DNA from: a virus
Direction: 5' to 3' (one strand)
DNA: 64,000 nucleotides
Virus record (IMG/VR): IMGVR_UViG_3300027619_000001
A program made the translations under genes and the position numbers. The notes below the pieces were generated by a model, which was not told where the DNA came from, did no database searches, and saw only the letters and a list, made by a program, of their open reading frames with translations. Of the stretch, positions 14,019 to 63,016 are shown piece by piece (the first letter of the stretch is position 1; every line of letters begins with the position of its first letter).

Positions 14019-16223
14019 TCAGTGTTTCGCCGCTCCCCAGCTTGGCCCAAAATCGCCCTCCGCCTCTAGCGGCACCCTCAGCTGCGTCGTCGTTGTCAGC
14101 GCCCCTATCACCACTCGATGCACCAACTCCCGGCACTCCGGCTCATCCGGCAATTCGTGAATCACTTCATCATGAACGGGCAGTAAAGGCTCCACCCCCG
14201 CCACGCGCCTCAACCCATCCCACATCGCCATCATGGCGCGTTTCAGTATCGTATTCGCACTAGTCTGGATCAGATGCGCGTACGAGCACCTCTCGGCTTC
14301 CGCTCTTACCTTGGGAATCGGCGACCATATCTGAGGCAGATATCTCATCCTGCCACTCAGGGGATCGACCGCCAATCCAGTCGCTCTGGTTCGCTCCATG
14401 CAATCACTCTGAAACCGTTTCGCGCCGGGGTAGATCTCATACCACGTATCGAGCATCGACTGGCAATCGTCTTCGGTCCATCTCGATCCGTCCTGCCGGT
14501 ACGCGCGGAACTTGATCATCTGGATACGCAGCCCGTATGCCTGGCCGCCGTTGATGATAAAAAAATTGACCACCTTCCCGGCCTGGCGCTGGTACTTTTC
14601 GATCCGCGATATCGGAGTTCCAAACATATCCGACGCCGACCGGGTATGCACGTCCCATTTCAGCTTCTCATCGTCCTTTGCCTCATGGCCCTTGATGAAT
14701 ATCTCGCACAACTTCTCATCCCGCGACAGATGCGCGAACGTTCTCATCTCCACGGTACTCAAATCGGCATCGTGAATTACTTTGCCCTCCGGTGCCACGA
14801 ACCCATATCGGCATTCCGAGCCCAATTCCGACCGCACCGGGATGGACAGCAGATTCATCGGCTCGGCGGTGGATATCCGGCCCGTGACTTGTCGAGTGAG
14901 TTTGAATGTCGCTCGTGCGCGCCTATCCCCAGTGGACGCCATCAACCTCAGCGGCTTGACATACGTGCCCTTGAGTTTGCTGGCCTCGCGGTAATCTTCG
15001 ATATGCTCGATGATCGGGGATAACGGTAGCAACTCCTCCAGACACTTATCGTCGGTAGACCCCCTCACGTCCCCGGACTCCCCGCCATCCGTCATGCGCG
15101 GTGGGGTCAATCCCAGTCCCCCCTTCGATACCGGACTGTACAACAATTCCGCTACCTGATCTCCCGAGCCGGGATTGATATCGCGCCCGGTTGCTTGAAA
15201 TATCCGCCACTTCGCCACCTCCATCTGGTTATCGCATTTGTCGTCCAGCGCATCCCAGAACTCCGGCCCCGCGAGTCCAATCCCCACCGCGGACATCCGG
15301 TCAATCATGGGAACGATCCCGTGGTCGATACGGCAGGCTTCCTCCAATCCCATAGCTTTGACTTTTTCGATCAATGGCCGCGTGATCCGGAATTGTGCGT
15401 CGGCATCGCGGCTGCCATATCGAATTGCCCTATCGATATCGATATCGTCCATCGTTGGCGTGGGCATGTCGCCAATCACCGCTATGACAGGTTCCTTGGC
15501 GGCATCGGTCAATTTCATCCACCGCTTGCGTGGATCAACGGGCGAGCCGTCCTTGAGTACTTTCCCCGACTCCACGTCGGCGATAATCCGGGTGACCAGC
15601 TTGCCGACGCCTTGGGGCTTTTCTACGCGGGTGCCGTTCCCGTCAGACACGATCTCGGGCTCGGGCTCAGGCCATGACTGGATGAGAGTCGATTCGGGCT
15701 CGGGAGGCGGCTCCAGTGTCGGTGCAGATCCTTCCTTGGCCTTCTTTCTCTTCTTCTTTATCTTTGCCGCCAACTCCACCCACGGCGCGTCCACCGCCGA
15801 TGCCACTCTCCTCAGATACTCCATCGCGATCCCGTGCCCCACATCCCCGATCAGATCGCTATAGTCCTCCTGATGCATCCCGGCGTGACGGTAGCACAAC
15901 GCCTTCAACCCGCCCGGTTCCACGCATAGCAGATACGCGAGTATCCCGGTATCGACAAACGGTATGTCCTCGCCCGCGATATCGATGCCCATGCCGCGGA
16001 GTTGCGCGAAGTCATTGAGCATCGCGTAGTGGAGAGAGACGAGCACGCGGTCGCGACTCGCGTATAACCAATCACGGAGTTTGCGTACAGCCACGGTATC
16101 CGTGGATCGGATCATGTACCCGGTACCGGGACGGAGGGAGATTTGCGCCGACCACGGTTGATCGGGAGAGCCTTCGCAATCAATCCCCACGATGATACGA
16201 TTGCCGATATCCAGCAGGCTCAC
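14019..16223 (-). CDS. polA: Family A DNA polymerase with 3'-5' exonuclease domain
   Basis: Exo I GIDCEG. Motif A DLSTVEMRTFAHLS. Motif B RQAGKVVNFFIINGGQAYGL. Motif C LLPVHDEVIHE. GTG start overlaps the upstream stop (GTGA). Confidence 0.9.
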   Translation of the reverse strand: MSLLDIGNRIIVGIDCEGSPDQPWSAQISLRPGTGYMIRSTDTVAVRKLRDWLYASRDRVLVSLHYAMLNDFAQLRGMGIDIAGEDIPFVDTGILAYLLCVEPGGLKALCYRHAGMHQEDYSDLIGDVGHGIAMEYLRRVASAVDAPWVELAAKIKKKRKKAKEGSAPTLEPPPEPESTLIQSWPEPEPEIVSDGNGTRVEKPQGVGKLVTRIIADVESGKVLKDGSPVDPRKRWMKLTDAAKEPVIAVIGDMPTPTMDDIDIDRAIRYGSRDADAQFRITRPLIEKVKAMGLEEACRIDHGIVPMIDRMSAVGIGLAGPEFWDALDDKCDNQMEVAKWRIFQATGRDINPGSGDQVAELLYSPVSKGGLGLTPPRMTDGGESGDVRGSTDDKCLEELLPLSPIIEHIEDYREASKLKGTYVKPLRLMASTGDRRARATFKLTRQVTGRISTAEPMNLLSIPVRSELGSECRYGFVAPEGKVIHDADLSTVEMRTFAHLSRDEKLCEIFIKGHEAKDDEKLKWDVHTRSASDMFGTPISRIEKYQRQAGKVVNFFIINGGQAYGLRIQMIKFRAYRQDGSRWTEDDCQSMLDTWYEIYPGAKRFQSDCMERTRATGLAVDPLSGRMRYLPQIWSPIPKVRAEAERCSYAHLIQTSANTILKRAMMAMWDGLRRVAGVEPLLPVHDEVIHELPDEPECRELVHRVVIGALTTTTQLRVPLEAEGDFGPSWGAAKH

Positions 16224-17731: not shown

Positions 17732-18517
17732 TCAGCGTCCTGTGCCATTCCCATTTCCCCCGTGCAACGCTCTCACTATTTTCTGCGCACTCAATTTCCC
17801 GATACCGTCTATGGATGCCCAGTCACTCTCACTCGCACTCACCATGTCAGCGACACTCTTAAATCTCGCCGCCACAGCCGCGCTCCTTGTCCTACCCACA
17901 TTCGGCAACTGAGCCGCGATCATCCGGCTGATTGACGGGCGCACGAGCAGTGCTCTGTCAAACAATTCTCCGCGCATGCTGTCATACACCGCGAGATGAC
18001 TTTCATGCTCGTCCCATCCCCGCGTCCACCAACTGTGCAACACCTGGACCCAGTTCGCGGCCATCTCGTAGTCGTCCACGATAGCCACCCTCACGCCGGC
18101 CTTGTGAGTCAAAGTATGCAGCCACATCTGGAGATCATGCCAGAGAAAACTCCTCCGCCTGCCGTGACTCGCATCCTTCCAGTACCCTTCGGATTTCCCC
18201 CGCTGAACCTGATACTCCAAAACTCCATCCCGCGCCCGCGCCCGGAATACGCCAATCACCAGTAACCAAACCTCATCGTAGGTCTGTAACATGCCCGGCA
18301 ATTGATGTCCGCTAAATCTGCTGTCCTGAATACAGGCGAGTAAATCTCCCAAAACTTTTACCTCGGCGGTCACTGTCAAAGGCACGCCTCGCGGGCCAGT
18401 ACCACAGAACGCAACGTCACCGAACTCCAACCGTCCCAACTCCACGGGCACGCCACGCCGACGAAGGAGAGGTTCCAATTGTGCCGAGCCCGCGCGGGGA
18501 TCAATCGTTATGCACAT
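17732..18517 (-). CDS. ERCC4 (XPF/Mus81/Hef)-type nuclease with C-terminal helix-hairpin-helix
   Basis: FGDVAF...TAEVKVLGDLLACIQDSRFSGHQ fits GDx(n)ERKx3D...Q. C-terminal HhH: SIDGIGKLSAQKIVRAL. Confidence 0.6.
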   Translation of the reverse strand: MCITIDPRAGSAQLEPLLRRRGVPVELGRLEFGDVAFCGTGPRGVPLTVTAEVKVLGDLLACIQDSRFSGHQLPGMLQTYDEVWLLVIGVFRARARDGVLEYQVQRGKSEGYWKDASHGRRRSFLWHDLQMWLHTLTHKAGVRVAIVDDYEMAANWVQVLHSWWTRGWDEHESHLAVYDSMRGELFDRALLVRPSISRMIAAQLPNVGRTRSAAVAARFKSVADMVSASESDWASIDGIGKLSAQKIVRALHGGNGNGTGR

Positions 18518-19551: not shown

Positions 19552-20205
19552 TTACAGAATTCCTTTCTCGACCAATTTAGGGGACTTTTTAGCGAACCAG
19601 TCCCGTACTCGTATAACTCTCCAACCACCGGATACAGCGTAGGCATCACGCTCCGCATCACGTTTTATCTGCAATGGCTGTCTGTGTTCCGGACCATCCA
19701 CCTCAATAACAAAACGACTAACAGGATCGGCAAAATCGAAGGCATAGGGGCCTATCATAAATTCCGAAAAGTAGCCTAAAGGCTCAAGGATCGAACGGAA
19801 GAGGCCATGAATTCCCCCTTGGGATTCTCTACGCGCCTTGCATAGATTACTGTGCCCCACAAGACTGCTCTTCATCGTTTCCCTAATTTTTGATTTGGTG
19901 GATTCCGATCTCGGAGGGTGAGGCAGGCCCTTCAACGCCCACGATATATTGCGCTTCCTTTCTTCCGAAAACACTTTACCTCTACACGCTTCTGAAATAG
20001 CCTTTCTATGCGCCTCTGTCAGCCGCCTACCTCGTAAGTGTTTTTTAGGCACACCCAGCGCGGACGCCGACATTTTAGCCCTTACCTCCTCCGGCACAAC
20101 TCTTCCCCGCAGGGATTCTGATATACGGCGACGTACCTCATCAGATACACGGCTCCCCTTTTTCACGTTACAAAATCCCCCGATCCACCAATTTGTCTTT
20201 CGCAT
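19552..20205 (-). CDS. Free-standing homing-endonuclease-like protein: five NUMOD3 repeats plus a Vsr/DUF559 PD-(D/E)XK nuclease domain
   Basis: Repeats: SDEVRRRISESLRG, PEEVRAKMSASALG, TEAHRKAISEACRG, SEERKRNISWALKG, SESTKSKIRETMKS. C-terminal domain: YAFDFADPVSRFVIEVDGPEHRQ...RDAERDAYAVSGGWRVIRV. Visibly more AT-rich than its flanks. Confidence 0.65.
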   Translation of the reverse strand: MRKTNWWIGGFCNVKKGSRVSDEVRRRISESLRGRVVPEEVRAKMSASALGVPKKHLRGRRLTEAHRKAISEACRGKVFSEERKRNISWALKGLPHPPRSESTKSKIRETMKSSLVGHSNLCKARRESQGGIHGLFRSILEPLGYFSEFMIGPYAFDFADPVSRFVIEVDGPEHRQPLQIKRDAERDAYAVSGGWRVIRVRDWFAKKSPKLVEKGIL

Positions 20206-30018: not shown

Positions 30019-31743
30019 TCAAAACTGTATCGGCGCGGGCATTTTGTCTACGCTCTTGAACGACCCCCACCACCACTTCGCGATAAAACCCTTCGCCCGC
30101 ATCTTCGGCAGAGCCCACTCGCAATTCTGATCGATCAACCAGGTCTCGGCCCAATCCGTTTCGCTTCTCACCGGTCGCCCGCTCATCTGAATAAGCGTCT
30201 GCGCCACCTGGTACAGGTCATAGTCCGGATCTTTGGCCTTGCGCGCCTTCACCAGAGAATCGGTCACAGAGGCGAAAGGCAACTTGCACAGAATCTGAAA
30301 CCTGCACAAATCGTGCGGGAAGTCGTATCCCGTATCGAGACTTGGGCTCAGAAGCAGAACGGCCTTGTTTGAGTCCTTGAATCCAGCCACAACTTCCGCT
30401 TTGTCGTACTTTCCGTGAATCATCATGCGATTTCGGTGGATGGAGTTGTCGAAAATGAATCTTGCTCTTTTGTACGACACGCAATGCGCGATCCCCTTCC
30501 AGCCCTCGTCCAGTCTCGATCCTGCGATACGGTCGAACACCTCCAGCCACTCCCGCATCAGTTCGTCGTTCTGTTCGTTGATGTATGTCATGCGAATCGA
30601 CGGGACATGGATGACCGGGCGGCGAGCAACGGGAAACGTACTCGGGTACTCCACAAATTCCATATCCGCGGGATCTATACCCAACATGGTGGCGGTCTTG
30701 GGACGGACTGTCGCCGATACCAGCACAATCTTCTCTATCCCCCGGAACAACGCCTGCTCCGCGTACCTCGCCGGCGACAGTGGATCAAACCGCACGCTGG
30801 CCATCCCGTCCGACTCGCTGACGATCCACTCGTCGTCGGTACGCATCGCGGCCAAGCGTTCCAACTTCCGTTTGAGATCGCGCAAATTCTTGAGTTCCCG
30901 CGACCAGCCACGGGTGCCACCACCACTGCCATCCGATCGCAGCCGCTTCTCCTGGTCCTTGACTCTCTCACTCACGCCCTCCAACTCCCCCTCCTGCGCC
31001 CACAACTTCCACTCCTCCACCGTCCATCCGCTGTCCGGCCACTGGATATGGAGCTGGAGACATTCTTTGCGTGAGAGATCGACACCGACGAACAACCCGA
31101 GAGCGTCTTCCGCTTTTTGCGCCTCGTCGCAGAACAGTATCTTCACCGGGCGATCCACACCCGCTTCCACCCCGAATTGCAGGTTTCCGCGTTCCTCGGA
31201 ATTCTTGATGCCGTCAAAAAGCCAGCAGGCATAGTTGGTCACGATCATATCCGCGCGTTGTGCGGTACGGTAATCGTCGTAATATCCGCACCCCGCTCCC
31301 GCTGTGGATTTAAGTCTGCATTTATATCCGCACTGGCATGGCGCGTCGGTAACTGTCGTACCCGCTGGTATTCCCAACTGTGCCGCGATGGGACAGGGAT
31401 AGTTATTCATGCCGCGAATGTCGTTGATTACATTTCGCAGGTCTCCGACATATTGATCCTCCAGTCCCTTCGTCATCGTCAGAACCGCCGATCTCCTGCC
31501 CGACATCAACGACGCGCCCGCCACAGCCAAAGTTTTCCCGAATCCCGGAGGCGCGCACAGAATAAATACCCGGCGCTCACTGGCGATGATCCGATGGATG
31601 GCATTTAATTGTGGATCGCGCCAGTTTGGGAACTTATCTCCATCCAGTCCATACTCGCACGGCGGCAGGACATCGGCATCCAGATTGATACCGGACACTG
31701 GCACAGGCGCGAGTCCATTCGGGTTAAGATTCAACGCGGCCAT
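30019..31743 (-). CDS. XPD/DinG (Rad3)-family helicase with Fe-S-cluster Cys motif
   Basis: Walker A CAPPGFGKT. Four Cys (YPCP...APCQCGYKC...GCGYY) lie between motifs I and II. Walker B ILFCDEAQ. Helicase_C_2-like VLLLSPSLDTGYDFPHDLCRFQILCKLPF. Confidence 0.7.
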   Translation of the reverse strand: MAALNLNPNGLAPVPVSGINLDADVLPPCEYGLDGDKFPNWRDPQLNAIHRIIASERRVFILCAPPGFGKTLAVAGASLMSGRRSAVLTMTKGLEDQYVGDLRNVINDIRGMNNYPCPIAAQLGIPAGTTVTDAPCQCGYKCRLKSTAGAGCGYYDDYRTAQRADMIVTNYACWLFDGIKNSEERGNLQFGVEAGVDRPVKILFCDEAQKAEDALGLFVGVDLSRKECLQLHIQWPDSGWTVEEWKLWAQEGELEGVSERVKDQEKRLRSDGSGGGTRGWSRELKNLRDLKRKLERLAAMRTDDEWIVSESDGMASVRFDPLSPARYAEQALFRGIEKIVLVSATVRPKTATMLGIDPADMEFVEYPSTFPVARRPVIHVPSIRMTYINEQNDELMREWLEVFDRIAGSRLDEGWKGIAHCVSYKRARFIFDNSIHRNRMMIHGKYDKAEVVAGFKDSNKAVLLLSPSLDTGYDFPHDLCRFQILCKLPFASVTDSLVKARKAKDPDYDLYQVAQTLIQMSGRPVRSETDWAETWLIDQNCEWALPKMRAKGFIAKWWWGSFKSVDKMPAPIQF

Positions 31744-32366
31744 CACTGTCCTTGTGCCTCCCGCCGTTCCTCATCCATATCTTCAATCCACAACTCGAAC
31801 GGTTGCAACTTTGGATCATCCGTGCAGTGCCAGCGCCACCTGAATCCATCGTCGGGATATGAGTGCCGGACGAAATCGGAATCTATACGCTCCCCGCTCA
31901 TGTACATCCCCGGCAACTTCACGCCATCCGGCGTGAGTTTCTGCCACTCGTTTACCGGGTAGTCCACTTTGGTGCTGCACGATACGCCCGACCACAGTTC
32001 GTGATTGATCGCTCCCGGTTTATATCCGCCCCCGGTTTCGTCCAGATGGCATGTGCATTGCTTCGGTCCTTTACCTTTGCCGGGGATGCGCCAAATGACT
32101 TTCCAGCGGCGCATGCCCATGTTAGACGCTTGAGCCTGTACCCCACACAACCTCGACCACGGGTGCATGCCGCACCAAGCATCGCCGCCAACGCCGCCGC
32201 CAAACGTCACAATCGACCACAACGCGAACAATGCGAGTACCGCTCCTTTTGCGCCGGATCGTTCGGGGATTGGCAGGCGCTCGATCCAGTTCAGGCGGGT
32301 GAGCAGCCGATTGATCCCGGACGCATACGTTGATGCCAGCCCATTCGGGTTGAGATTGAGAGCCAC
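31743..32366 (-). CDS. Hypothetical protein with ALNLNPNGLA N-terminal tag and one hydrophobic segment
   Basis: GTG start. Residues 2-19 parallel the helicase N-terminus. Confidence 0.5.
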   Translation of the reverse strand: MALNLNPNGLASTYASGINRLLTRLNWIERLPIPERSGAKGAVLALFALWSIVTFGGGVGGDAWCGMHPWSRLCGVQAQASNMGMRRWKVIWRIPGKGKGPKQCTCHLDETGGGYKPGAINHELWSGVSCSTKVDYPVNEWQKLTPDGVKLPGMYMSGERIDSDFVRHSYPDDGFRWRWHCTDDPKLQPFELWIEDMDEERREAQGQ

Positions 32367-35726: not shown

Positions 35727-36518
35727 TTATCTCGCTCCCCCCAACAGCATCGCCAGCCAGTCCACCACCTCATCCGGCACATCCATCTCTTTGCCATTCA
35801 CCGTCATCCGGCCGCTCTCCACCGCAGCCTTGAGACTATGTCGCAACGTCACCCGGCCAGCGCCATTGCCATTGCCATTGCGGGGCACTTTTATCCTACC
35901 CGTACCATTCTCCCTCACTGCCTTTGCCTGCTGCTCCTGCGACAACTTCGCTATCGCCGCCGCCGCCGACCCTTTTAGTCTTCCATCCCGCCACGCTTTC
36001 TCCGCCTCGGGACTTAGGTTGACTAATGCCGCGCGTTTCTTCACCCACTTCAATCCCTCTTTCAACTTTTCATCCCGCGCTCCGGGAAAGTACACCCCTG
36101 CGACCTGCTCCTCGGTCATGGCGTATACCTTCATTAAGCGCTTGATATTGTGGGCGTCGTCCAGTTCAGTCGTGGAGTTGCGGACGCGATTCTCACTGAT
36201 CGCCGCCAGAAACCCCTCGTGCTCGTTAGCTTGAGTATAAGTGCAGCGGAGTTGCAGTGGCGTGTCCATCAACTTCCGCCGGTTGATTTCGCTTACCGCC
36301 CGATACCTACTGAACCCCGCGCACAGTACTGCCTTGCCACCGTCGTTGCGGATCACCACGGGCGTATGCTGGCCGTTGACGAGAATATCTTGGATCAACG
36401 GCTCGATATCGGGGAGATCGTGCCGCCCGTTCAACTTGGGGTTGATGACGATGTCCTGGGGGAACGCGCGATACTCGCTCGTCCTGCTGATGGATTTCGA
36501 TGTGAATTGAACGGCCAT
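35727..36518 (-). CDS. ParB-like nuclease-domain (ParB/sulfiredoxin fold) protein
   Basis: IEPLIQDILVNGQHTPVVIRNDGGKAVLCAGFSRYRAVSEI matches the ParB N-terminal box pattern. Confidence 0.6.
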   Translation of the reverse strand: MAVQFTSKSISRTSEYRAFPQDIVINPKLNGRHDLPDIEPLIQDILVNGQHTPVVIRNDGGKAVLCAGFSRYRAVSEINRRKLMDTPLQLRCTYTQANEHEGFLAAISENRVRNSTTELDDAHNIKRLMKVYAMTEEQVAGVYFPGARDEKLKEGLKWVKKRAALVNLSPEAEKAWRDGRLKGSAAAAIAKLSQEQQAKAVRENGTGRIKVPRNGNGNGAGRVTLRHSLKAAVESGRMTVNGKEMDVPDEVVDWLAMLLGGAR

Positions 36519-37199: not shown

Positions 37200-37228
37200 A
37201 AGATAATCCGATTACTATTCTTTGTCAA
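37200..37228 (-). promoter_or_regulatory. Sigma70-like promoter restarting leftward transcription downstream of the Rep-like gene
   Basis: Minus strand: TTGACA (37228..37223), 17 nt, TATCTT (37205..37200). Confidence 0.5.
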
Positions 37229-37269: not shown

Positions 37270-37297
37270 TTGCATTCCATTTTCCCGGCGATATACT
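37270..37297 (+). promoter_or_regulatory. Sigma70-like promoter for the Rep-like gene
   Basis: TTGCAT (37270..37275), 16 nt, TATACT (37292..37297), about 30 nt before ATG 37328. Confidence 0.45.
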
Positions 37298-37327: not shown

Positions 37328-38545
37328 ATGTTATCCCATAAGAAAATTAAGCCATCGTCCCGAAAACCGTCCCATCCGTCGTCCAAACGCAAACCCGTCA
37401 AGTCCATCGGCGACCAGCGCCGCGACGAGATCACAAAATCCCTCCTCGCCAAGATGGAATCCTCCACCGCCCCCAAAGACCAGTACCGCGTGCAACTCTA
37501 CCGGCACCTGTCCCGCTTCCCGCAATCCGGCATGCTCACCGACAACCAACGATTCTTCTTTCTTGCGTGCCAATGCCTCAAGATGGTGGACCGCTGCCCG
37601 AACGACGGCTATGAGGAATTCAAATGGAGAAGGTTTTGCCGGCGCGAGTTCTGGTGTCTGGACTGCGCAGCGTGGAAAACCACCTCGCGCGCGATGCAGT
37701 GGGAACGTAACGTCAAATCCGCATTGCTGATGACCAATCTGTTCCTCGGACCCATGCTTACGCTCGCATGGGACATACCCGAATCCGGTCCCGGCACTGG
37801 CTCCGGCCTCGACCATCTGAAACGCTTCCACAAGTATCTCGAACAGACTTGGCCGGCCAAATTGGAGACCCTTGGAATCGGGTCCGGCAACCGCCGGGAG
37901 GGCGAGCTGGCGCAATGGCTACTTTTTACCTCGTTTGATCCTATATTGCACAAAATACGTGGGTTATACTTCGGACCCCCGTTGAGTACTAGGGCACTTT
38001 CTGCGTATATATATAGTACTAACGCAAAAAGTGCCCTAGTACCTCGGGGGGGTCAGCCGTCCCCTTGGACTCCTAAAAAGGGCAAAGAGGTTTATCTGCT
38101 GGACGAGGAAAAGTCCCCGGTCAAGGCCGCATCCAAATTTTTTGAGCGTATCCGAACGGGAATTGATTGGACGCTGGGCTCTCCGCACGCACTACTCGAA
38201 CTCGAACCCAAGCGGGCGTTTGAACTCGACTCTCAATATGGCCACCGCCATCTCACCAGCGCGCGCGGAGCGGTGTACGGATTGAACGAAGCCGCAGCCT
38301 TCATCGAAGGCGACACTCCGATCCAGACCGAACTCAACGTGCTCAAGTTGTGCGCGGATGGAAATGTGGATCTGGTATCGGTCGATCCGGTCAAACTCAT
38401 AGGCAGCGTACAGACCACCCAGACCGCGCCAAAAACCGACGCCGGATCGTTGTCAGGAGATGACTTTCAATCCGGCGTCTGCGGTACGTGCGGGGGGCCG
38501 CTTGATAGAACGTGCGTCCCGGTGGAGCCGAGTGGCACGAGCTAG
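37328..38545 (+). CDS. RepSA-like replication-initiator candidate, the only rightward gene inside the leftward block
   Basis: ATG 37328 (the track ORF starts at 37001). CRREFWCLDCAAW, MLTLAWDIPESGPG and GHRHLTSARGAVYG resemble, from memory, the C.RR...C..C, fLTLTaPsfG and GHf.tKSRrYS boxes of actinomycete RepSA-type initiators. Confidence 0.4.
   Translation: MLSHKKIKPSSRKPSHPSSKRKPVKSIGDQRRDEITKSLLAKMESSTAPKDQYRVQLYRHLSRFPQSGMLTDNQRFFFLACQCLKMVDRCPNDGYEEFKWRRFCRREFWCLDCAAWKTTSRAMQWERNVKSALLMTNLFLGPMLTLAWDIPESGPGTGSGLDHLKRFHKYLEQTWPAKLETLGIGSGNRREGELAQWLLFTSFDPILHKIRGLYFGPPLSTRALSAYIYSTNAKSALVPRGGQPSPWTPKKGKEVYLLDEEKSPVKAASKFFERIRTGIDWTLGSPHALLELEPKRAFELDSQYGHRHLTSARGAVYGLNEAAAFIEGDTPIQTELNVLKLCADGNVDLVSVDPVKLIGSVQTTQTAPKTDAGSLSGDDFQSGVCGTCGGPLDRTCVPVEPSGTS
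37974..38054. repeat. 81-nt imperfect inverted repeat (27 bp pairable) with a TATATATA-containing loop, inside the Rep-like CDS
   Basis: GTACTAGGGCACTTT (37986..38000) pairs perfectly with AAAGTGCCCTAGTAC (38028..38042). Inner stem TGCGT/ACGCA (38002..38006 and 38022..38026). Outer stem GACCCCC/GGGGGTC (37974..37980 and 38048..38054). Loop atatatatagtacta. Confidence 0.8.
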
Positions 38546-38548
38546 CGG

Positions 38549-39133
38549 TCAGCGCTTCTTCGATTTCTTTTTCGGCTTGGGCTTACTCCCGTCGCCGCTC
38601 CCTCCCTTCGCTCTCTTCTTCGCACTCTTCTTGTTCGCGCGCCCGCTGCCTACCTTCCGTTTCCGCATCGGTCTATCGGTGGGCACGCGCCGCTCTGCTT
38701 TGAACCTGGCCGCCGTATCGTCCATGACCTTGGCGGCGTCCCCCGTGAGGTCATCCGATACGACATTCACATCGGGTCCGGGTGCGGCCTCGGGTTCCGG
38801 CTCCGGCTCCGGCTCCAGTTCGGGTTCCGGCTCCAACCCCTCCAACTCTTCCGGCGACCACTCGTCGTTCTGTTCGCGCTCCGATTCCTCTTCCGGCCCA
38901 TCGGCCTGCTCGAATATCTCCCGATCGGCATCGTCCACGAACACCGACGCCGCATCGGCATCCATCTCCCGTTCGCCATCCAGATACATCCTCTCCCGGT
39001 CGGCTGTCTGTGCGTCCGGTATGTCATCCCTCAAGCCAACCGGCACGTATCCGTTCTCGTCGGCCATCGGGTGACTGCTGTCCCGTTCGTCGTTGCGAAA
39101 CCATCTCCCATTGCCACTGCCACGATTACTCAT
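38549..39133 (-). CDS. Highly charged protein (acidic EPEL repeats, Lys-rich C-terminal tail)
   Basis: ATGA coupling at 39133. EPEPELEPEPEPEPE is encoded by ggctcc/ggttcc repeats at about 38785..38830. The tail is KKSAKKRAKGG...KPKPKKKSKKR. Confidence 0.5.
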   Translation of the reverse strand: MSNRGSGNGRWFRNDERDSSHPMADENGYVPVGLRDDIPDAQTADRERMYLDGEREMDADAASVFVDDADREIFEQADGPEEESEREQNDEWSPEELEGLEPEPELEPEPEPEPEAAPGPDVNVVSDDLTGDAAKVMDDTAARFKAERRVPTDRPMRKRKVGSGRANKKSAKKRAKGGSGDGSKPKPKKKSKKR

Positions 39134-41086: not shown

Positions 41087-41392
41087 CTATCCTCCGTTTC
41101 CATTCACTCTCGATTTTTCCCAATCCCTGGCTCTCGCGCTGATAGGCCGGTGCGTCCGCGATATTTCCTCCAACGCCTCGGCTCGTGTCGCCTTTTCATT
41201 TGCCATCAATGTCTGCCGCAACTCCGCCAGCGTCCCCCAGCAATGACTCGGACATTGATGAAGCTCTGCGAGTGACTTCCTTCCAGCCGTCGCCATGTAA
41301 CTATGCCCTTTAGATCCGTAGCATCTCGTTCTACAGATCGGACACCTACTGTCGCATGGCTCGCTCTTCGTAATCTCGGCCAGGGTACTCAT
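41087..41392 (-). CDS. Cys-rich hypothetical protein
   Basis: ATGA coupling at 41392. CDSRCPICRTRC. Confidence 0.45.
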   Translation of the reverse strand: MSTLAEITKSEPCDSRCPICRTRCYGSKGHSYMATAGRKSLAELHQCPSHCWGTLAELRQTLMANEKATRAEALEEISRTHRPISARARDWEKSRVNGNGG

Positions 41393-41517
41393 TTCGTGAG
41401 CCACCAGATAAACGCAATCCATCCCGGTGCCACGATCAACAGCCCGTTCCTTACTCCCCTGAGCATCGCGATACAGTCCTGTCTGGTTACAAACGGATCA
41501 TCACGTTTACGCCGCAC
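41389..41517 (-). CDS. Small membrane peptide (42 aa)
   Basis: GTG 4 nt after gaggagga. C-terminal TM LLIVAPGWIAFIWWL. Confidence 0.35.
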   Translation of the reverse strand: MRRKRDDPFVTRQDCIAMLRGVRNGLLIVAPGWIAFIWWLTK

Positions 41518-41557
41518 AATTCCTCCTCGGTTGAGATTCACCCGCGCCCCAACGGAC

Positions 41558-41806
41558 CTAACCAAAGATGTGCCAAACGAAAGGTTGAATGTGTGCGGTC
41601 CCCAAATAGGCCAAGCCTCCCGGCACAGCATGGCCCGTTCCGACAATTGCGAATCGGCGCATGACAGTTCCGGCGTTCGGGTTCACAAGCGCCCACAACG
41701 TTATAAAGCCCGATTGCGCGGCCACATGCAGCACCTTAGCGCCCACGGGCATAATAATCTCAACCTGATCGTCAATCTGCTCGACCTGATACTTATAGAT
41801 CGTCAT
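41558..41806 (-). CDS. Small hypothetical protein
   Basis: RBS aaggag before Met MTIYKYQ. The track ORF is over-extended to 41944. Confidence 0.45.
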   Translation of the reverse strand: MTIYKYQVEQIDDQVEIIMPVGAKVLHVAAQSGFITLWALVNPNAGTVMRRFAIVGTGHAVPGGLAYLGTAHIQPFVWHIFG

Positions 41807-41847
41807 GATTTCTCCTTTTTCCCTTCCCTTGGTCCCTCCCTCTTGCC

Positions 41848-42018
41848 TTACTCGGTTGGGAAGTCGCTCGCATCCACAAATTCCTCGATCAGATTTGCCG
41901 CCAAGTGCAACCTGTCGCGCATGTTCTCGCGATCCTCGGCCCACTGCCGCAGATATCGCACGAGTTCAGACTTCTTAGATACCTGTCCTAACGTTGTTTT
42001 CCTAGCCTCAATTGGCAT
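41848..42018 (-). CDS. Small hypothetical protein (56 aa, not in the track)
   Basis: Own translation: MPIEARKTTLGQVSKKSELVRYLRQWAEDRENMRDRLHLAANLIEEFVDASDFPTE*. RBS ggagag. Confidence 0.4.
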   Translation of the reverse strand: MPIEARKTTLGQVSKKSELVRYLRQWAEDRENMRDRLHLAANLIEEFVDASDFPTE

Positions 42019-42076
42019 AACTTCTCTCCGTCCGGTTGAGATTCACCGCCCGTCTAACTCCGTCACTCGGACGGAC

Positions 42077-42307
42077 TCAGCGATTTACCCTCTGGATAAG
42101 TCGGTCGATGGCTGTACTAGTCAGCGCGTTACCGTGCTCCAAGGCAATATCCGCGAAGTCAACAGGAACACCTTCGTTGTCGGTCATATCGTCCGTCACG
42201 TCCGCCTGCCACATCCGCAGGGCTGCGATGATGGTGTCAAACTCCCTTTCTGATACATCGAACGCGATACGTCGTGCCATAGTCTCCTCCGTTGAATCTC
42301 CGGTCAC
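42077..42307 (-). CDS. Small acidic protein
   Basis: 76-aa ORF, coupled. Confidence 0.45.
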   Translation of the reverse strand: MTGDSTEETMARRIAFDVSEREFDTIIAALRMWQADVTDDMTDNEGVPVDFADIALEHGNALTSTAIDRLIQRVNR

Positions 42308-44585: not shown

Positions 44586-44614
44586 TGTTCCATTCCTCCG
44601 TTCAATGATTGATT

Positions 44615-44641
44615 CCTATACGATATCGTTAGATATGTCAA
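44615..44641 (-). promoter_or_regulatory. Promoter candidate carrying the same palindromic operator as 13410..13438
   Basis: Minus strand: TTGACA (44641..44636), then ATATCTAACGATAT (44636..44623), then TATAGG (44620..44615). The spacer is only 15 nt, so this is a weaker core promoter. Confidence 0.4.
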
Positions 44642-44706
44642 GTACAATCTGGGATTGTCTCACGATTCTGTCTGGACTGTTACGACCGAACCGTCAGAAC
44701 GTTCAG

Positions 44707-44919
44707 TCATTTCAGTTGTTTCTGTCTAGACAGAAATTGTCGTATCGCCTTGCGTACCAACGCGCTTATGCCGGTCTCCTCGCGCCGCGCCAGCGATTGC
44801 AATTGCGCCAGTGTTTGCGCGGTGATTCTCACGTTCAATGGCACTTCGATGCCTTGGTAGTCGGAATGGCGCTTAGTGGGCTTCATTGGAGTACCATCCT
44901 GGTTGAGTGTGCCGGCCAT
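44707..44919 (-). CDS. Ribbon-helix-helix (CopG-like) regulator; start uncertain (44919 or 44886)
   Basis: IEVPLNVRITAQTLAQLQSLARREETGISALVRKAIRQFL. Confidence 0.5.
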   Translation of the reverse strand: MAGTLNQDGTPMKPTKRHSDYQGIEVPLNVRITAQTLAQLQSLARREETGISALVRKAIRQFLSRQKQLK

Positions 44920-45271
44920 CGTCGGCGCAATCCTCCGCCGTCCAATAGGTGAACGAGTACCACGTCGCCCACTCTTTAAGAGCAATCGTCATGTTGCCCT
45001 GATAGATCGACTTGAGACCTGTCTCGTTCAGTTTCTCTTGCACGTAACGGTAGCCTGCCGATGTGAGTGGATTGTGGAAGAACACCCCGCACCCTGTGCA
45101 GTGCTCTGGCACATCCGACTCCTCAGTCTCCACCATTGCATCCTTCGGGTAATCGTCCGAGTCATAGGACGAATGGTCTAATGTATCTTCCGGTACGTTC
45201 GCTGATAGCCGTTGCCGGATGGCATCACCGCACCTATTACAGTAGACATCCGCTTGGTAGATGTAGCCCAT
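44873..45271 (-). CDS. Hypothetical protein, first gene of the leftward operon
   Basis: RBS ggagga before Met MGYIYQ. CNRCG...CTGCG. Confidence 0.5.
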   Translation of the reverse strand: MGYIYQADVYCNRCGDAIRQRLSANVPEDTLDHSSYDSDDYPKDAMVETEESDVPEHCTGCGVFFHNPLTSAGYRYVQEKLNETGLKSIYQGNMTIALKEWATWYSFTYWTAEDCADDGRHTQPGWYSNEAH

Positions 45272-45314
45272 TGCTCTGTCCTCCGTTTGTGTATTGCTAT
45301 GTATTACGTAAGAC

Positions 45315-45343
45315 AATGTAATACTGAAACAGAAACGTGTCAA
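45315..45343 (-). promoter_or_regulatory. Leftward early promoter
   Basis: Minus strand: TTGACA (45343..45338), 17 nt, TACATT (45320..45315). Confidence 0.55.
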
Positions 45344-45475
45344 GCACTATTTCTCATCTGCCTGTAGAAATGTCGGCACGGCGACCGATACAGCGATTGA
45401 CCGACCGGAGTAACCATCGGCCAACACACTCCCGTAACTTGCGCGCGGTCGCGGTCTGCCGCATGATGGCACTCG

Positions 45476-45499
45476 GAGGATACATATGAGGATACATAT
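45476..45499. repeat. Perfect tandem 12-mer GAGGATACATAT x2 in the divergent control region
   Basis: Read directly. The two units are 45476..45487 and 45488..45499. Confidence 0.8.
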
Positions 45500-45966
45500 A
45501 ATGACCGGCACCCGGACTGACTCGCCGACCTACTCACTTATCGAAGTATTGCTAGGCCCATCCATCTACCCGACACTGCCAGCTACCCGTTGCCACGCGC
45601 CCACAACCGTCCCACTCGTTGACCGCGTGACCTGGATAACCGATGCCGCGATGCGGGAGTGTGCCAGCAGACAGTCCGACTGGGAACGGGAGCTTGGACG
45701 GTGGCGAGCTTAGGACGGTAGAACGGTAGAGTGTCAGTCAGTCACACAAACACACTGGCCGGCATGCCTATCGTCATGCCATTGCCTATACCGTTGCCTA
45801 CACCGTCACTCATGCCAATACTGTCCGCTCATGCCCGAGCCCATGTTCCGGTACAAGGGGTAGGGCGGGGGCTCGTACAGGCCGAATCGCGGATGCCTAG
45901 ACTTTCGTACACTAATTTCAAAAATTGTCGAAATTCCGTCCTCGCCGTTTTTGTTGAAAATTTTCC

Positions 45967-45996
45967 TTGACAGTTTCGCCAAGTCCGGCGTATTGT
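45967..45996 (+). promoter_or_regulatory. Rightward promoter
   Basis: TTGACA (45967..45972), 18 nt, TATTGT (45991..45996). An A/T-rich tract lies upstream. The gene ATG is at 46010. Confidence 0.55.
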
Positions 45997-46009
45997 GATC
46001 TCAACCTAA

Positions 46010-46291
46010 ATGGCGAAATACAAATCATCTATCGTCGCGTTCGATCCCGCGATTGAAAAGTCGATTGCACGCACCTACGACGACTTGTCTCAAGACGATG
46101 TTGTGGGTTTGCTGGTTCACGCCAAGGGCGGGGATTCGATCGAAGTGCTGGCCGCTAGAGTGGGGGTGTCGTTTCAGTATCTGGCTAGGGTGCTGACCGG
46201 GGAGCGGTCGCCGGGGCCGAAGGTGCTTAAGTTTCTGGGTGCGAAAAAAGTGGTGGCGTATCGGCTAGTGGTGAACAAGGAGAAAAAGTAA
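46010..46291 (+). CDS. Cro/XRE-like HTH protein
   Basis: IEVLAARVGVSFQYLARVLTGERSPG. It is the first gene after the rightward promoter. Confidence 0.5.
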   Translation: MAKYKSSIVAFDPAIEKSIARTYDDLSQDDVVGLLVHAKGGDSIEVLAARVGVSFQYLARVLTGERSPGPKVLKFLGAKKVVAYRLVVNKEKK

Positions 46292-46516
46292 ATGCTAAGA
46301 GTCATGCGAATTACGGGAGCTCAGTGGTCGTTCATCTGGGCCAAACTCATGCCCATGCAGCGTAGGTCGGCGGATTGGGTGGGTACCGATAATCTTATCC
46401 TCAACGACGAGGATGGTCCGATACTCCTGACGATTGGAAAGGCCGAGGTGATTACCGAACCCCCAGAGCGAGTGAGGCGATATCTGGATAAGTTCGAACA
46501 ACAGCTTATCGAGTGA
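46292..46516 (+). CDS. Small hypothetical protein
   Basis: The ATG directly follows the previous TAA. Confidence 0.45.
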   Translation: MLRVMRITGAQWSFIWAKLMPMQRRSADWVGTDNLILNDEDGPILLTIGKAEVITEPPERVRRYLDKFEQQLIE

Positions 46517-46534
46517 CGAGAGGACCGTCCCGCC

Positions 46535-46566
46535 GAACGATGGAACGATGGAACGATGGAACGATG
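46535..46566. repeat. Perfect tandem octamer GAACGATG x4
   Basis: Read directly. Each unit contains an ATG, and the ATG at 46556 is in frame with the downstream ORF. Confidence 0.85.
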
Positions 46567-46642
46567 TGGTGTTGAGGTTTCTGGGGTTGGAAAGAGCGGT
46601 GGTGGAAGGGTATCGCGTGGGCGGAGTAACGGGGATCGATCG

Positions 46643-46891
46643 ATGAGTGATACTCCAACAAATCCAAACATGGATCGCATCAAATGCACATCCGTGACCG
46701 ATACCCTGATGAAAGCGATGGAGCGCGCGGATTCGATGGATGGCGTGCTGGTGCTGTTCTACAAGCGCTCGGATACCGATCAGGAGATAGGGTGCTCATT
46801 TAGTTCGGATGACATGCGGGCAGACTCGACACTGTGGCTGCTGGAGCAATACAAAGCGTGGCTGCTGGGGCTTGCTAGGAGAGAGGACTGA
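46643..46891 (+). CDS. Hypothetical protein (start 46643, or 46556 inside the octamer repeat)
   Basis: The frame is shared with track ORF 46556..46891. MSDTPTNPNMDRIK... looks like the native N-terminus. Confidence 0.45.
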   Translation: MSDTPTNPNMDRIKCTSVTDTLMKAMERADSMDGVLVLFYKRSDTDQEIGCSFSSDDMRADSTLWLLEQYKAWLLGLARRED

Positions 46892-54313: not shown

Positions 54314-56572
54314 ATGGGCATCAAGCGCAAAGACGAGAGCCTGAATGACGCTATAGAGGCGTTGGACGAACTCTTTGTGTCCGACGCGGGCTCTGACTTT
54401 AATCGTGCTTGGGAAATAGTCAACGCGCAATTCGATTACTCGGAGTTTATAGACGACCAAATCGAAAAGTGTACATACGATCGACGCTACTACTTGGAGA
54501 ATTACCACATCATCAAAGACGAGCAGGGTCACCCACAAACTCTCTATCCCCTCCTCGATCAACAGGAGCTAATTCTAGAAACCATCGAGCGTGACTGGAC
54601 TACGGATGGATGTTACCGCCGCATCATCGTCAAGCCCAGACAGTGCGGAGGCACGATCATCGCGGGCGCTCTGACTTTTCAGGCGACTATTTTCAACGAG
54701 CGCATGTTCACTCTGATGATGGCCCAAAACCGGGATACGACTTCGGAACTAGCACGCCGCATCAAAGATGCGTTTTATAATTTGCCCTGGTGGGCTCGTC
54801 CGAGGCGCGAGTCGGAAGTTCAGGACACGCACTACATATTCCAAGAGCCGGATGAAAAGAAACGCCTCTCCGATCCGGGATTGGGTTCCACGCTTATCAT
54901 CTCTAACGCCGCGAAAGAGGCGGGCATTGCGATTGGCAAGACCATAAGGTGCGCGCACTTTTCGGAAGTCTCTCGCTGGCCCGAGTCCGACGCTTGGACA
55001 AGCGACATTGAGCCTTCCATGAATGCGCCCGATACACGCGCCATCATGGAATCCACAGGCTATGGCAGGCGCGGGATTTTTTACAACATGTGGCTGGAGG
55101 CTGTCGAAGGCGGCGATACGGACTGGAAGCCACTGTTCATTCCGGTGTATCGTGTCCGCAAATATTTCATGCCTATCCGCAAGAGGGAGCAATTCGTTCT
55201 CACCGATAAAGAGAGCGCGTTTCGTGAAAGAATACGAACTATCGGCGATGGCATCGGAAAGTACACTATTCCCAAAGGCTTTTTCAAGTGGCAGCGCCGC
55301 AAGATAAAATCCTATATCAAAAAAGCCCGATCCGCGGAGGGTATCTATCAGTATCAGGAATCCTATCCCGACACTTGGGAAGTGGCTTTTATTTCTTCCG
55401 GTCTATGCGCGTTCCCGAGAACGTGCCTCGACGACCAAGAGAGATTGCATTGCCGTGATCCGATACTGATCGGCGACGTGGAATACGCGGGTATAGACAC
55501 GGCACCTAGATTCATCAACCTTCATCCGCCTCGGCCAGAAGAGTTGCTCAGAAAACCCGAACACGAGAACCGCCTTTGGATATGGGAGGAGCCGGATAGT
55601 CTCGACGAATCGACGGAATACTACATAAGCGCAGACGTGGCATCCGGGCAGGGAAAGGATTTCTCGTCCTGCGACATTTTTCGCTTGGGATTCGGTAAAG
55701 ATGGATGGACGCAAGTCGCTAACTGGCATGGGAAAATAAACGCCTCTCATTACGCGCGGATCATCGCCGCTCTCGGTTACTGGTATCACGGTGCCGAGGT
55801 GGCGGTGGAGTACCTCGGTCCCGGCGTTACCACGGGTGACGAACTCAAAAACCAATTAGACTACGCCGCGTTGTATCGCTGGCGCGTTATGGATAAGATC
55901 AGCGGCAATGCCACTCTTCACGTCCATTGGATGACGAATTACAAAACGCGTGAAGACATGATCCAGCGCGCGTATGAGGCGTTGATTGATGAGACGGTAA
56001 AGATTCGCAACAAACACACAATCGCCGAAATGCGCGACTTTGCCCGGTATGAAGGAGAGGGACGCGCCGAGGGTATCGACAATAACGACGATTATGTTTT
56101 TTCTCTGATGATCGCCATCGCTGCCTCCCATCAGGCCGGCAAAGGTGGCGCGAATTGGAACGAAGAACATCTGACATCGCGGGGAGATAGAGCGGGACTG
56201 ATGCCCAGCACGCCTGTCATTTATGCGGTGTACGACCAATACCTCCGGCAAATAGTAGACACACAGCACCCGACCGAGAAGGAATGCCAAGATATAATCG
56301 ACCAGTGCCAAGCGAAAGTGAAGATCAAGCTCCCGTGGATTGTCAGAGGTATTCAGGTGACGAAAGCGAACACCATATGGTCGCCTATCTTCGACGGGAC
56401 GAACCAGACGCCCGAGGCCGAGTTGTACAATCAATTCGGGATCGAACCGAAACGTATGAATCCCGATCTGGTGACCGCGTACCGGGATTCGTTTAGACGT
56501 GGGCAGCAGGGGCACACTCCCGACGAAATGGGGGAGTTTGTAGGCGTGAACGATGCCAGCGACGAAGACTAG
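54314..56572 (+). CDS. terL: Terminase large subunit
   Basis: 752 aa. Walker A-like VKPRQCGGTIIAG. CAHFSEVSRWPE. C-terminal nuclease-like YYISADVASGQGKDFSSCDIFRL and DDYVFSLMIAIA. Confidence 0.75.
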   Translation: MGIKRKDESLNDAIEALDELFVSDAGSDFNRAWEIVNAQFDYSEFIDDQIEKCTYDRRYYLENYHIIKDEQGHPQTLYPLLDQQELILETIERDWTTDGCYRRIIVKPRQCGGTIIAGALTFQATIFNERMFTLMMAQNRDTTSELARRIKDAFYNLPWWARPRRESEVQDTHYIFQEPDEKKRLSDPGLGSTLIISNAAKEAGIAIGKTIRCAHFSEVSRWPESDAWTSDIEPSMNAPDTRAIMESTGYGRRGIFYNMWLEAVEGGDTDWKPLFIPVYRVRKYFMPIRKREQFVLTDKESAFRERIRTIGDGIGKYTIPKGFFKWQRRKIKSYIKKARSAEGIYQYQESYPDTWEVAFISSGLCAFPRTCLDDQERLHCRDPILIGDVEYAGIDTAPRFINLHPPRPEELLRKPEHENRLWIWEEPDSLDESTEYYISADVASGQGKDFSSCDIFRLGFGKDGWTQVANWHGKINASHYARIIAALGYWYHGAEVAVEYLGPGVTTGDELKNQLDYAALYRWRVMDKISGNATLHVHWMTNYKTREDMIQRAYEALIDETVKIRNKHTIAEMRDFARYEGEGRAEGIDNNDDYVFSLMIAIAASHQAGKGGANWNEEHLTSRGDRAGLMPSTPVIYAVYDQYLRQIVDTQHPTEKECQDIIDQCQAKVKIKLPWIVRGIQVTKANTIWSPIFDGTNQTPEAELYNQFGIEPKRMNPDLVTAYRDSFRRGQQGHTPDEMGEFVGVNDASDED

Positions 56573-62041: not shown

Positions 62042-63016
62042 ATGGCGAACTTGAGCGATATCCAAGCCGTAACCGTGAATTACGTGAGCGACACTTTTGT
62101 CGATAATTTTTTCAAAGTGTCCCCGACCTTCGTCAAAGTCTGGAAGGGCGGCGAGATGGCCAAGCCCTACCCCGGCGGCGTCCAGATCCAAGCGCCATTC
62201 CAATACGCCCCTCTGAAGGCTGGCCCGTTCGCGCCGGGCGGAGTGTTTGACATCTCCTACGTGCAGACCCAGACTGCGATGTTGTTCAATCCCAAATTCA
62301 GCTATGCGAACGTCACAGTCCGCCGCACGGACTTGGCTATCAACCGCGGCTGGCCTGCTGTGATGAACTTTTTGGAGCCTAAAGTCGTGAACGCGGAGCA
62401 AGCCCTCGCCCAAACCCTCATCACTCAGTTCTTTGAGGACGGGCAGGGTACCGTCTCCCCTCTGATCGCGCTCGACGGTATCCTCGCCGGGTACGACGAC
62501 GGTACCAATTACCCCACGTATGGTGGGATTACCCGTTCGTCAGTGGGCACGGGCGCATCCGCCGGCATCAACGGCTATTACTTCAACAACTCCGGCACCA
62601 CCTGGCCGTTCTCGCTCCAGCAACTCCAGACCGCATTCGGCCAAGCCACGTTCGGCCCCAACCAGCCGAATTTCATCGCCACCACTCAGTCCATCTACAA
62701 CTCGTTCTGGGCGAAGATGCTGCCCATGCAGCGGACGATGGAAATCGATCCCGATTTGCAAGGCGCGGGATTCCGGGCGTTCCGGTTTAACGGCATGAGT
62801 GTCGTAGTCGATCAGTATTGTCCGAGCGGGTACATTTTCGGCATGAATACCGACTACATTGACGCTTACGTCAGCGAGGATCCGGCGTTCAATTTCGGGT
62901 TCACGGGCTGGAAGGAGTTGCCGAACAGTCTGGATATGGCGGCGCAGACCGTATTCGGGGGCAACATTGTCGTGACCGCTCCGAGGCTTGGTTTCATTCT
63001 GGCGAGCGTGAGTTAA
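62042..63016 (+). CDS. Major capsid protein candidate
   Basis: 324-aa ORF with RBS caggaga. The call rests on position after portal/scaffold and on capsid-like size. Confidence 0.55.
   Translation: MANLSDIQAVTVNYVSDTFVDNFFKVSPTFVKVWKGGEMAKPYPGGVQIQAPFQYAPLKAGPFAPGGVFDISYVQTQTAMLFNPKFSYANVTVRRTDLAINRGWPAVMNFLEPKVVNAEQALAQTLITQFFEDGQGTVSPLIALDGILAGYDDGTNYPTYGGITRSSVGTGASAGINGYYFNNSGTTWPFSLQQLQTAFGQATFGPNQPNFIATTQSIYNSFWAKMLPMQRTMEIDPDLQGAGFRAFRFNGMSVVVDQYCPSGYIFGMNTDYIDAYVSEDPAFNFGFTGWKELPNSLDMAAQTVFGGNIVVTAPRLGFILASVS

Follow-up and report, generated by a model that had tools for sequence, protein, structure and literature searches.

The origin-binding domains of simian virus 40 (SV40) large T antigen, papillomavirus E1 and adeno-associated virus (AAV) Rep adopt the HUH fold; in T antigen and E1 they are no longer nucleases, and their targets are inverted repeats that flank A+T-rich viral origin DNA. 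The initiator protein O of bacteriophage lambda has no nuclease activity. Its origin is located centrally within gene O and consists of iterons and an AT-rich tract; in Shiga toxin (Stx) phages that have two additional iterons, O is longer by 13 residues (PMC7466680). For the phages P2 and phiX174, GenBank records place the origin inside gene A. A further in-gene case is RepAM of pMEA300, an initiator unrelated to the classical Rep families and without the catalytic and metal-binding motifs of rolling-circle initiators; the purified protein binds multiple identical repeats in its own coding sequence, which can form a hairpin and are the putative origin (PMC2440964). In Pfam, RepAM corresponds to DUF3631, PF12307 (PMC3218068). 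Here we analyze a gene in a 64,000-nucleotide (nt) stretch of viral DNA, IMG/VR record IMGVR_UViG_3300027619_000001 (in the following, the window), which encodes a protein of 405 residues on the plus strand (37328..38545) and contains an 81-nt inverted repeat (37974..38054). We are highly confident that this repeat belongs to a conserved DNA element recognized by the gene's own product and consider it probable that the element is a replication origin within an initiator gene, built of iteron-type sites for that product.

The 81-nt repeat, a potential hairpin or cruciform, comprises two 33-nt arms that are 82% complementary, with 15 nt between them. Its inner part is formed by two iteron-like arms of 21 nt, complementary to each other at 20 of 21 positions: a left one in inverted orientation (GTACTAGGGCACTTTCTGCGT, 37986..38006, minus strand), for which homologous arms occur at the same gene position in other loci, and a right one in forward orientation (ACGCAAAAAGTGCCCTAGTAC, 38022..38042, plus strand), where an alignment of sites (A3, see below) places the family core AA(A/C)AA(G/C)T. 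Read directly, the intervening 15 nt (38007..38021) are an A+T-rich spacer, ATATATATAGTACTA, which we propose as the site of melting or the loop of a cruciform. An initial annotation had described the open reading frame (ORF) and a hairpin with inner stems of 15 and 5 bp, a G/C outer stem and a 15-nt loop. The frame is indeed open, and repeat search and DNA folding bear out the hairpin, with the two inner stems merging into one 21-nt arm and the outer stem reading GACCCCC/GGGGGTC. Folded as single-stranded DNA, positions 37960-38070 gave −30.4 kcal/mol, compared with −13.6 ± 2.5 for shuffled sequences (z = −6.77), and none of 200 shuffles folded as stably as the real sequence. Only three inverted repeats were found in the window (seed 10), of which this is the longest and strongest. 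In Rfam, positions 37977-38049 matched only microRNA-precursor models far below threshold, the best being mir-H11 with 27.8 bits (threshold 70), a family that we take to be derived from the herpes simplex oriL palindrome; the match reflects generic long-hairpin similarity, not homology.

The coding properties of the gene change around the repeat. In sliding codon windows, third-position G+C content is 0.2-0.5 across about 37913..38062 (plus strand) vs 0.7-0.9 elsewhere in the gene, in agreement with the switch to A/T-ending codons noted initially. This dip also spans the conserved block 5' of the repeat-bearing loop, a feature that the homologues described below do not share. An A+T-rich unwinding tract extending into that block was therefore dropped as a candidate, being true of the window alone and not family-wide.

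An identical public protein exists (HXN71493.1), a 405-residue hypothetical protein from a Candidatus Acidoferrales metagenome-assembled genome (MAG), and the segment is kept in all three near-identical metagenomic variants of the protein. No family was matched in Pfam, PHROGs, NCBIfam or PDB sequence profile searches, and the query alone had no Pfam match at E ≤ 1. Word-index protein searches, whether started from one sequence or from the aligned family, retrieved only the protein itself; an exact look-up found no contigs encoding it on record, tblastn against annotated phage and plasmid collections yielded no homologue, and blastn of the gene region matched only low-complexity stretches of the neighboring gene. 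That neighbor (38549-39133, minus strand) lies convergently downstream and encodes a low-complexity acidic/basic protein that combines (EP)n repeats with a lysine-rich tail; all blastn matches to known phages stem from the repeat DNA of this gene.

Homologues were obtained by an exhaustive HMMER search of 1.8 billion representatives, which yielded 22 proteins at E ≤ 0.001, the query included, so that the relatives amount to about 20 distant metagenomic proteins. Their alignment (A1) begins with an N-terminal part of consensus CP..CR.RF.C..C, in which five cysteines are invariant in every sequence covering the region (C81, C90, C104, C110 and C113; codons within 37568..37666, plus strand). These residues form a predicted zinc ribbon, near which the AlphaFold2 model (predicted local distance difference test, pLDDT, 79.9; predicted TM-score, pTM, 0.80) has strands at 84-89 and 96-100; weak zinc-ribbon Pfam matches are the sole signal that the four databases gave for 16 family members. 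A conserved core follows, ending in ..FDPI...IRALYLGPP, and is succeeded by 20-60 unalignable residues rich in indels. Beyond them the alignment resumes with G..SPW.P......YLLD, conserved helices (Y..RRL.S.RG) and a C-terminal CxxC that is invariant in 16 of 16 sequences (C385 and C388; 38480..38491, plus strand).

The repeat coincides with the unalignable stretch. Residues 216-242, which the hairpin encodes, are exactly the hypervariable stretch of the family alignment, and together with pLDDT and third-position G+C the alignment delimits a hypervariable loop of residues 217-246 (37976..38065, plus strand) between ..LYFGPP and ..SPW. In the model, this stretch is a low-confidence loop joining two strands of the alpha/beta core, with pLDDT below 50 at residues 229-239. 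The loop peptide is thus predicted to be disordered and surface-exposed, and may be free to follow the DNA sequence. The suggestion that the segment might be an indel relative to homologues was not upheld in the alignment. The segment is no insertion into a gene that is continuous elsewhere; the loop that it occupies differs in length and sequence from member to member.

DNA was available for twelve intact genes (the window, L001, L002, L003, L004, L005, L007, L008, L009, L010, L013 and L019), whose proteins are 23-42% identical to that of the window. In all twelve, the loop between ..LYLGPP and ..SPW contains the gene's longest inverted repeat as well as its most stable 90-nt fold. As the loop makes up about one tenth of each gene, the probability of such a placement by chance is negligible. 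The arms are 17-27 nt long and mostly 92-100% complementary, and their sequence varies from genome to genome. Spacers measure 11-18 nt in ten loci, six of which hold TATA(A/T)A, and 1 and 2 nt in L009 and L019, respectively. Third-position G+C is depressed in the loop of 11 of 11 loci (0.42 vs 0.69, p = 0.001) and, with the exception of the window, only there, the flanking conserved blocks being normal. The comparison with homologues proposed initially thus showed that they, too, combine an inverted repeat and low third-position G+C in this part of the gene, the sequence of the repeat being different.

The sites are not confined to the paired arms. Six loci have one to three extra direct copies each outside the hairpin pairing: three forward copies and an inverted one are present in L002, the spacer of L013 is surrounded by two copies pointing leftward and three pointing rightward, and L005, L008, L007, L010 and L001 have one or two extra copies each. 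The copies are spaced by 30-39 bp, except in L001, where the distance of 68 bp is about twice 34 bp. Copies inside one genome are 92-100% identical, while sites differ among genomes. An alignment of 15 sites from nine loci (A3) showed that all share the core (G)AAACAA(G/C)T(C/G)GG, which reads AAAAAGTGCC in the window. Because this core is read in different codon phases, even inside one gene (ETSVL and NKCTK in L002), the constraint acts on the DNA and not on the peptide, and because near-identical direct copies are kept outside the hairpin, the sites seem to work as iterons.

These observations bear on two further explanations. One is a hairpin at the RNA level, formed in the mRNA and controlling translation, pausing or transcript processing. 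The repeat would also fold in RNA, and its arms vary among the homologues with pairing kept; however, the direct copies that take no part in pairing have stayed 92-100% identical to the arms, the whole family shares a sequence core and no Rfam family scored above threshold. We therefore regard an RNA element as very unlikely. The other, raised by the initial annotation, is a palindromic mobile element of the type of miniature inverted-repeat transposable elements (MITEs), inserted in frame, or a site of telomere resolution or site-specific recombination. A compositionally distinct palindrome within a gene could suggest this, yet the element occurs as a single copy in the window, its exact 21-mer is absent from three public collections (genome, metagenome and viral), and its position is fixed in twelve diverged genes despite a diverged sequence. 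Further, the repeat centre is not palindromic, nor are the spacers of 11-18 nt in ten loci, so that hairpin telomeres could not be formed precisely; a telomere site would also split an expressed gene, and the protein matches no integrase, transposase or protelomerase family. Explanations of this kind are hence extremely improbable. An attP site inside a repressor gene was likewise rejected in view of the excessive arm length, the spacer of 11-18 bp and the lack of an integrase gene next to the site.

Position, architecture and core of the element are thus conserved under a constraint that acts at the DNA level. Taken together, the twelve genes provide strong evidence for a functional cis element whose divergence goes along with that of the protein, and of the explanations offered by the initial annotation, a cis-acting, origin-type element in an initiator-like gene is the one best supported by the comparative data. 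From the same data we infer that the element is bound by the protein encoded around it and that the process served is replication. Some indication of the tempo of divergence comes from L013, whose Rep-like protein is 31% identical to that of the window (37328-38545; L013:9935-11140), whereas the helicases encoded a few kb away are 62% identical (30019-31746; L013:5044-6771). The initiator-like module therefore diverges faster than the neighboring replication gene, which is the behavior expected of a specificity module.

Two side observations concern individual loci. In L014 (Acidobacteriaceae MAG contig CAVZPJ010000013.1, 3040-3160), a close relative of L001 (1150-1240), the 68 bp between two direct copies are gone, which leaves a single site and breaks the gene up into two frames that overlap (2529-3116 and 3040-3627). 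The loss reflects either recombination between the repeats, with inactivation of the gene, or an artefact of assembly. L001 (341-553), L004 and L005 have a small same-strand gene directly 5' of the Rep-like gene, which in L001 encodes an excisionase-type HTH_17 protein; a counterpart is missing from the window. Circularity was not seen in any short homologue contig, so that none qualifies as a plasmid.

Regarding the nature of the protein, Foldseek searches against BFVD, a set of predicted viral structures, retrieved for the most part replication initiators of Microviridae (E 8e-5 to 1e-3, probability 0.9-0.99). Weak matches in PDB, among generic ferredoxin-like folds, included the HUH domains of AAV Rep, wheat dwarf virus Rep, minute virus of mice (MVM) NS1 and RepB, and were no sharper with a model of the core domain only than with the full model. 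In a profile alignment with gokushovirus VP4, which is not significant, the motifs occur in the same order: CR.RF.C..C is aligned with PCRRCKFCR,.WML..AFDP with HYHLLIYNYDFP and Y..RR with YVARY. These similarities would be compatible with a rolling-circle double-strand origin, where a divergent HUH-type nickase would act on a nick site in the extruded A+T loop, as do phiX174 gpA, P2 gpA, RepSA and pMV158 RepB; a hairpin with adjacent direct repeats is the classic layout of such origins (PMC2440964).

The residues that nicking would need are not conserved in the family, however. It has no HUH motif and no conserved histidine, the strand aligned to HYHLL of VP4 being (D/E)WML, nor is there a conserved cluster of histidine, aspartate or glutamate. 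Both histidines of a GHRHLTSARG box, which had been taken as a mark of RepSA-type initiators, belong to the non-conserved positions of the family consensus Y..RRL.S.RG. The best-conserved tyrosines are Y304 (13 of 16 sequences, F in three), Y214 (14 of 15, F in one) and Y256 (11 of 15), none of them invariant, and one member with F at position 304 (P0013) has an intact gene with a perfect 23/23 repeat. Loop sequences vary across the family, while in origins of this type conservation is normally highest at the nick site (PMC2440964). In a Pfam scan of the 16 members, no replication family was matched at E ≤ 10 (Rep_1, Rep_2, Rep_trans, Phage_GPA, RepSA PF20199, PF12307 and that of lambda O), which also leaves the proposed RepSA membership unsupported, and a PHROG search matched no lambda O-type or other replication family. 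We therefore consider a rolling-circle nick site unlikely and, because neither the HUH histidines nor the tyrosine nor the loop sequences are conserved, rank non-catalytic origin binding above nicking.

The best explanation for the gene product is a DNA-binding, replication-initiator-like protein of an undescribed family in phages of Acidobacteria. If the homology to VP4 is real, the HUH histidines would have been lost. On this basis one may tentatively go further and propose, as a possibility to which we give limited credence, that a Rep domain of the Microviridae/HUH lineage, having lost its nuclease motifs, serves as a non-catalytic initiator binding iterons or a cruciform in tailed phages of about 100 kb that infect Acidobacteria. 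The origin would lie inside a disordered loop of the same domain, so that protein specificity and origin sequence would be physically inseparable and would change together at a much higher rate than the other components for replication.

The gene is part of a tailed-phage genome. It stands alone on the plus strand of the early/replication arm, together with minus-strand genes that a family scan assigned to a ParB-like protein (35727..36518, 0.8 kb upstream of the Rep-like gene), a DEAD/Helicase_C_2 helicase (30019..31746) and a family-A DNA polymerase, PolA (14019..16223), and far from the terminase, portal and capsid genes. No other recognizable initiator, integrase or protelomerase is encoded among the scanned ORFs of the window. 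The statement that it is the sole plus-strand gene within 35 kb is nearly right, a 316-residue plus-strand ORF at 41303..42253 being a possible second one; this ORF has no family match, and its G/C skew and third-position G+C are like those of the surrounding minus-strand DNA. Of the divergent promoter pair proposed initially, a consensus scan, the sole evidence here, recovered the promoter-like site for the divergent minus-strand genes (37228..37200, TTGACA, 17 nt, TATCTT) but did not report the plus-strand one (37270..37297).

The vicinity of the ParB gene bears on a further explanation, in which the site is recognized by the gene's own product and serves a purpose other than replication, either as an in-gene autoregulatory operator or roadblock, or as a partition or centromere-like site acting with the nearby ParB. 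The comparative data indicate a DNA element that binds protein and do not by themselves indicate its purpose, and the in-gene site of RepAM has also been proposed to regulate expression (PMC2440964). Several arms hold GTTTCA / TGAAAC. This motif resembles parS half-sites; yet the window arms lack it, the element always accompanies the Rep-like gene, and ParB is not adjacent in L003, L007 and L013. An origin is also the better fit to arrays in which two to five sites surround an A+T spacer and to the fold matches with Rep proteins, and we regard a site without a role in replication as quite improbable.

If the element is an origin, it might function as follows. The protein made from the gene would bind both arms beside its own template, to which relatives add direct copies on a lattice of about 30-39 bp. 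The protein-DNA complex might then bend or melt the A+T spacer, or extrude a cruciform, and the opened DNA could admit the phage helicase (30019..31746) and the family-A DNA polymerase (14019..16223).

Several points weigh against an origin. The similarity to Rep proteins is weak, with TM-scores of 0.2-0.35 for the BFVD matches; in PDB, structure searches with the full model and the separately predicted core domain yielded no match at E < 0.02, and profile comparisons with P2 gpA and gokushovirus VP4 were not significant (hhalign probability about 0.1%). The window's own element consists of two inverted arms only, with no third copy. With 11-18 bp, the A+T spacer would make a short unwinding element; in three loci it lacks A+T richness, and the L009 repeat is a G+C-rich palindrome whose arms lie 1 nt apart. 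Contigs other than the window, L007, L013 and L014 are short fragments of mostly 1-3 kb, so that context comes from few members. For the element at 38 kb we found no replication-specific signal: cumulative G/C skew, which the initial annotation had suggested as a check, turns (minimum) at about 45.9 kb, where genes switch from the minus to the plus strand. The skew follows gene orientation and is hence uninformative as an origin marker. The region at 44600-46700 has repeats of its own, namely an 8-bp tandem repeat GAACGATG at 46535-46566 and imperfect palindromes at 44666-44735, 45282-45333 and 46623-46656, and could be a regulatory region or another origin candidate.

Among the remaining genes of the window, the family scan identified the large terminase (54314-56572), the portal (58279-60153) and the major head protein (62042-63016), all on the plus strand. 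That the Rep-like gene might instead encode a small terminase and contain a pac site was rejected, since the terminase, portal and capsid genes are 16-25 kb away in the other arm. The replication arm also contains homing-endonuclease-like ORFs near the polymerase gene (19552-20205 and 17732-18517, both minus strand; NUMOD3/DUF559 and HNH).

If the element is the origin, the analysis would assign a function to an orphan family that has no Pfam, PHROGs or NCBIfam match and would provide a rule for finding origins in these genomes, namely inverted sites with the core AACAA(G/C)T in the LYLGPP-SPW loop. It would also be a further, independent example of an origin that lies within the gene of its initiator, supporting the view that such nesting is selected through cis action and linked specificity and is not accidental, and may be an example from a bacterial virus of a nuclease-dead Rep fold in origin recognition. 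To our knowledge, Acidobacteria have no genetic tools and their phages are almost uncharacterized; the gene and its site would form a module that is a candidate minimal replicon for these bacteria.

Among the systems introduced at the outset, lambda O is similar in having its origin amid the initiator's own gene, with iterons that vary in number among relatives and thereby lengthen a region of the protein without DNA contacts (PMC7466680). As in lambda, iterons and an A+T-rich tract occupy a non-essential coding stretch. The two differ in that they have no sequence relationship, the present family matching no Pfam replication family at E ≤ 10, and in the arrangement of the sites: lambda has four to six direct iterons beside a longer AT tract, whereas in most loci here two inverted sites enclose a spacer of 11-18 bp, and up to three further copies follow a lattice of about 35 bp. 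According to the AlphaFold2 model, moreover, the loop lies here inside a folded domain and not between two domains.

With RepAM the likeness is one of working principle only, in that all twelve intact loci have repeated in-gene sites able to form a hairpin. PF12307 was unmatched by the 16 members at E ≤ 10. RepAM has 8-bp repeats that flank a pC194-like nick motif, while the sites here are 17-27 bp long and their loops have no conserved motif; the pC194-type nick site CTTGAT is absent from the loop and spacer sequences of ten loci, which have no motif in common beyond TATA. RepAM also belongs to an integrative element of actinomycetes, pMEA300 (Actinobacteria), in contrast to the tailed phages of Acidobacteria analyzed here.

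The HUH initiators, phiX174 gpA, P2 gpA, gokushovirus VP4 and pSAM2 RepSA, provide the best fold matches and, in phiX174 and P2, an in-gene origin; VP4 additionally has an N-terminal cysteine motif and a collinear motif order, as judged from a non-significant alignment. They differ from the present family, in which HUH histidines, catalytic tyrosines and a nick or loop sequence are not conserved, and have no similarity to it at the profile level. Of the HUH-fold proteins of animal viruses, the AAV Rep origin-binding domain is among the weak, non-significant PDB matches. In T antigen, E1 and AAV Rep, a superfamily 3 (SF3) helicase is fused to the origin-binding domain and the origins are outside the gene, whereas here the helicase is encoded by a separate gene. 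The arrangement of an origin within a gene is thus of an already established kind; new are the protein family, the site architecture, in which two inverted sites bracket a short A+T spacer and are accompanied by additional copies, variable in number, at intervals of about 35 bp, and the placement of the sites in the loop of a folded domain.

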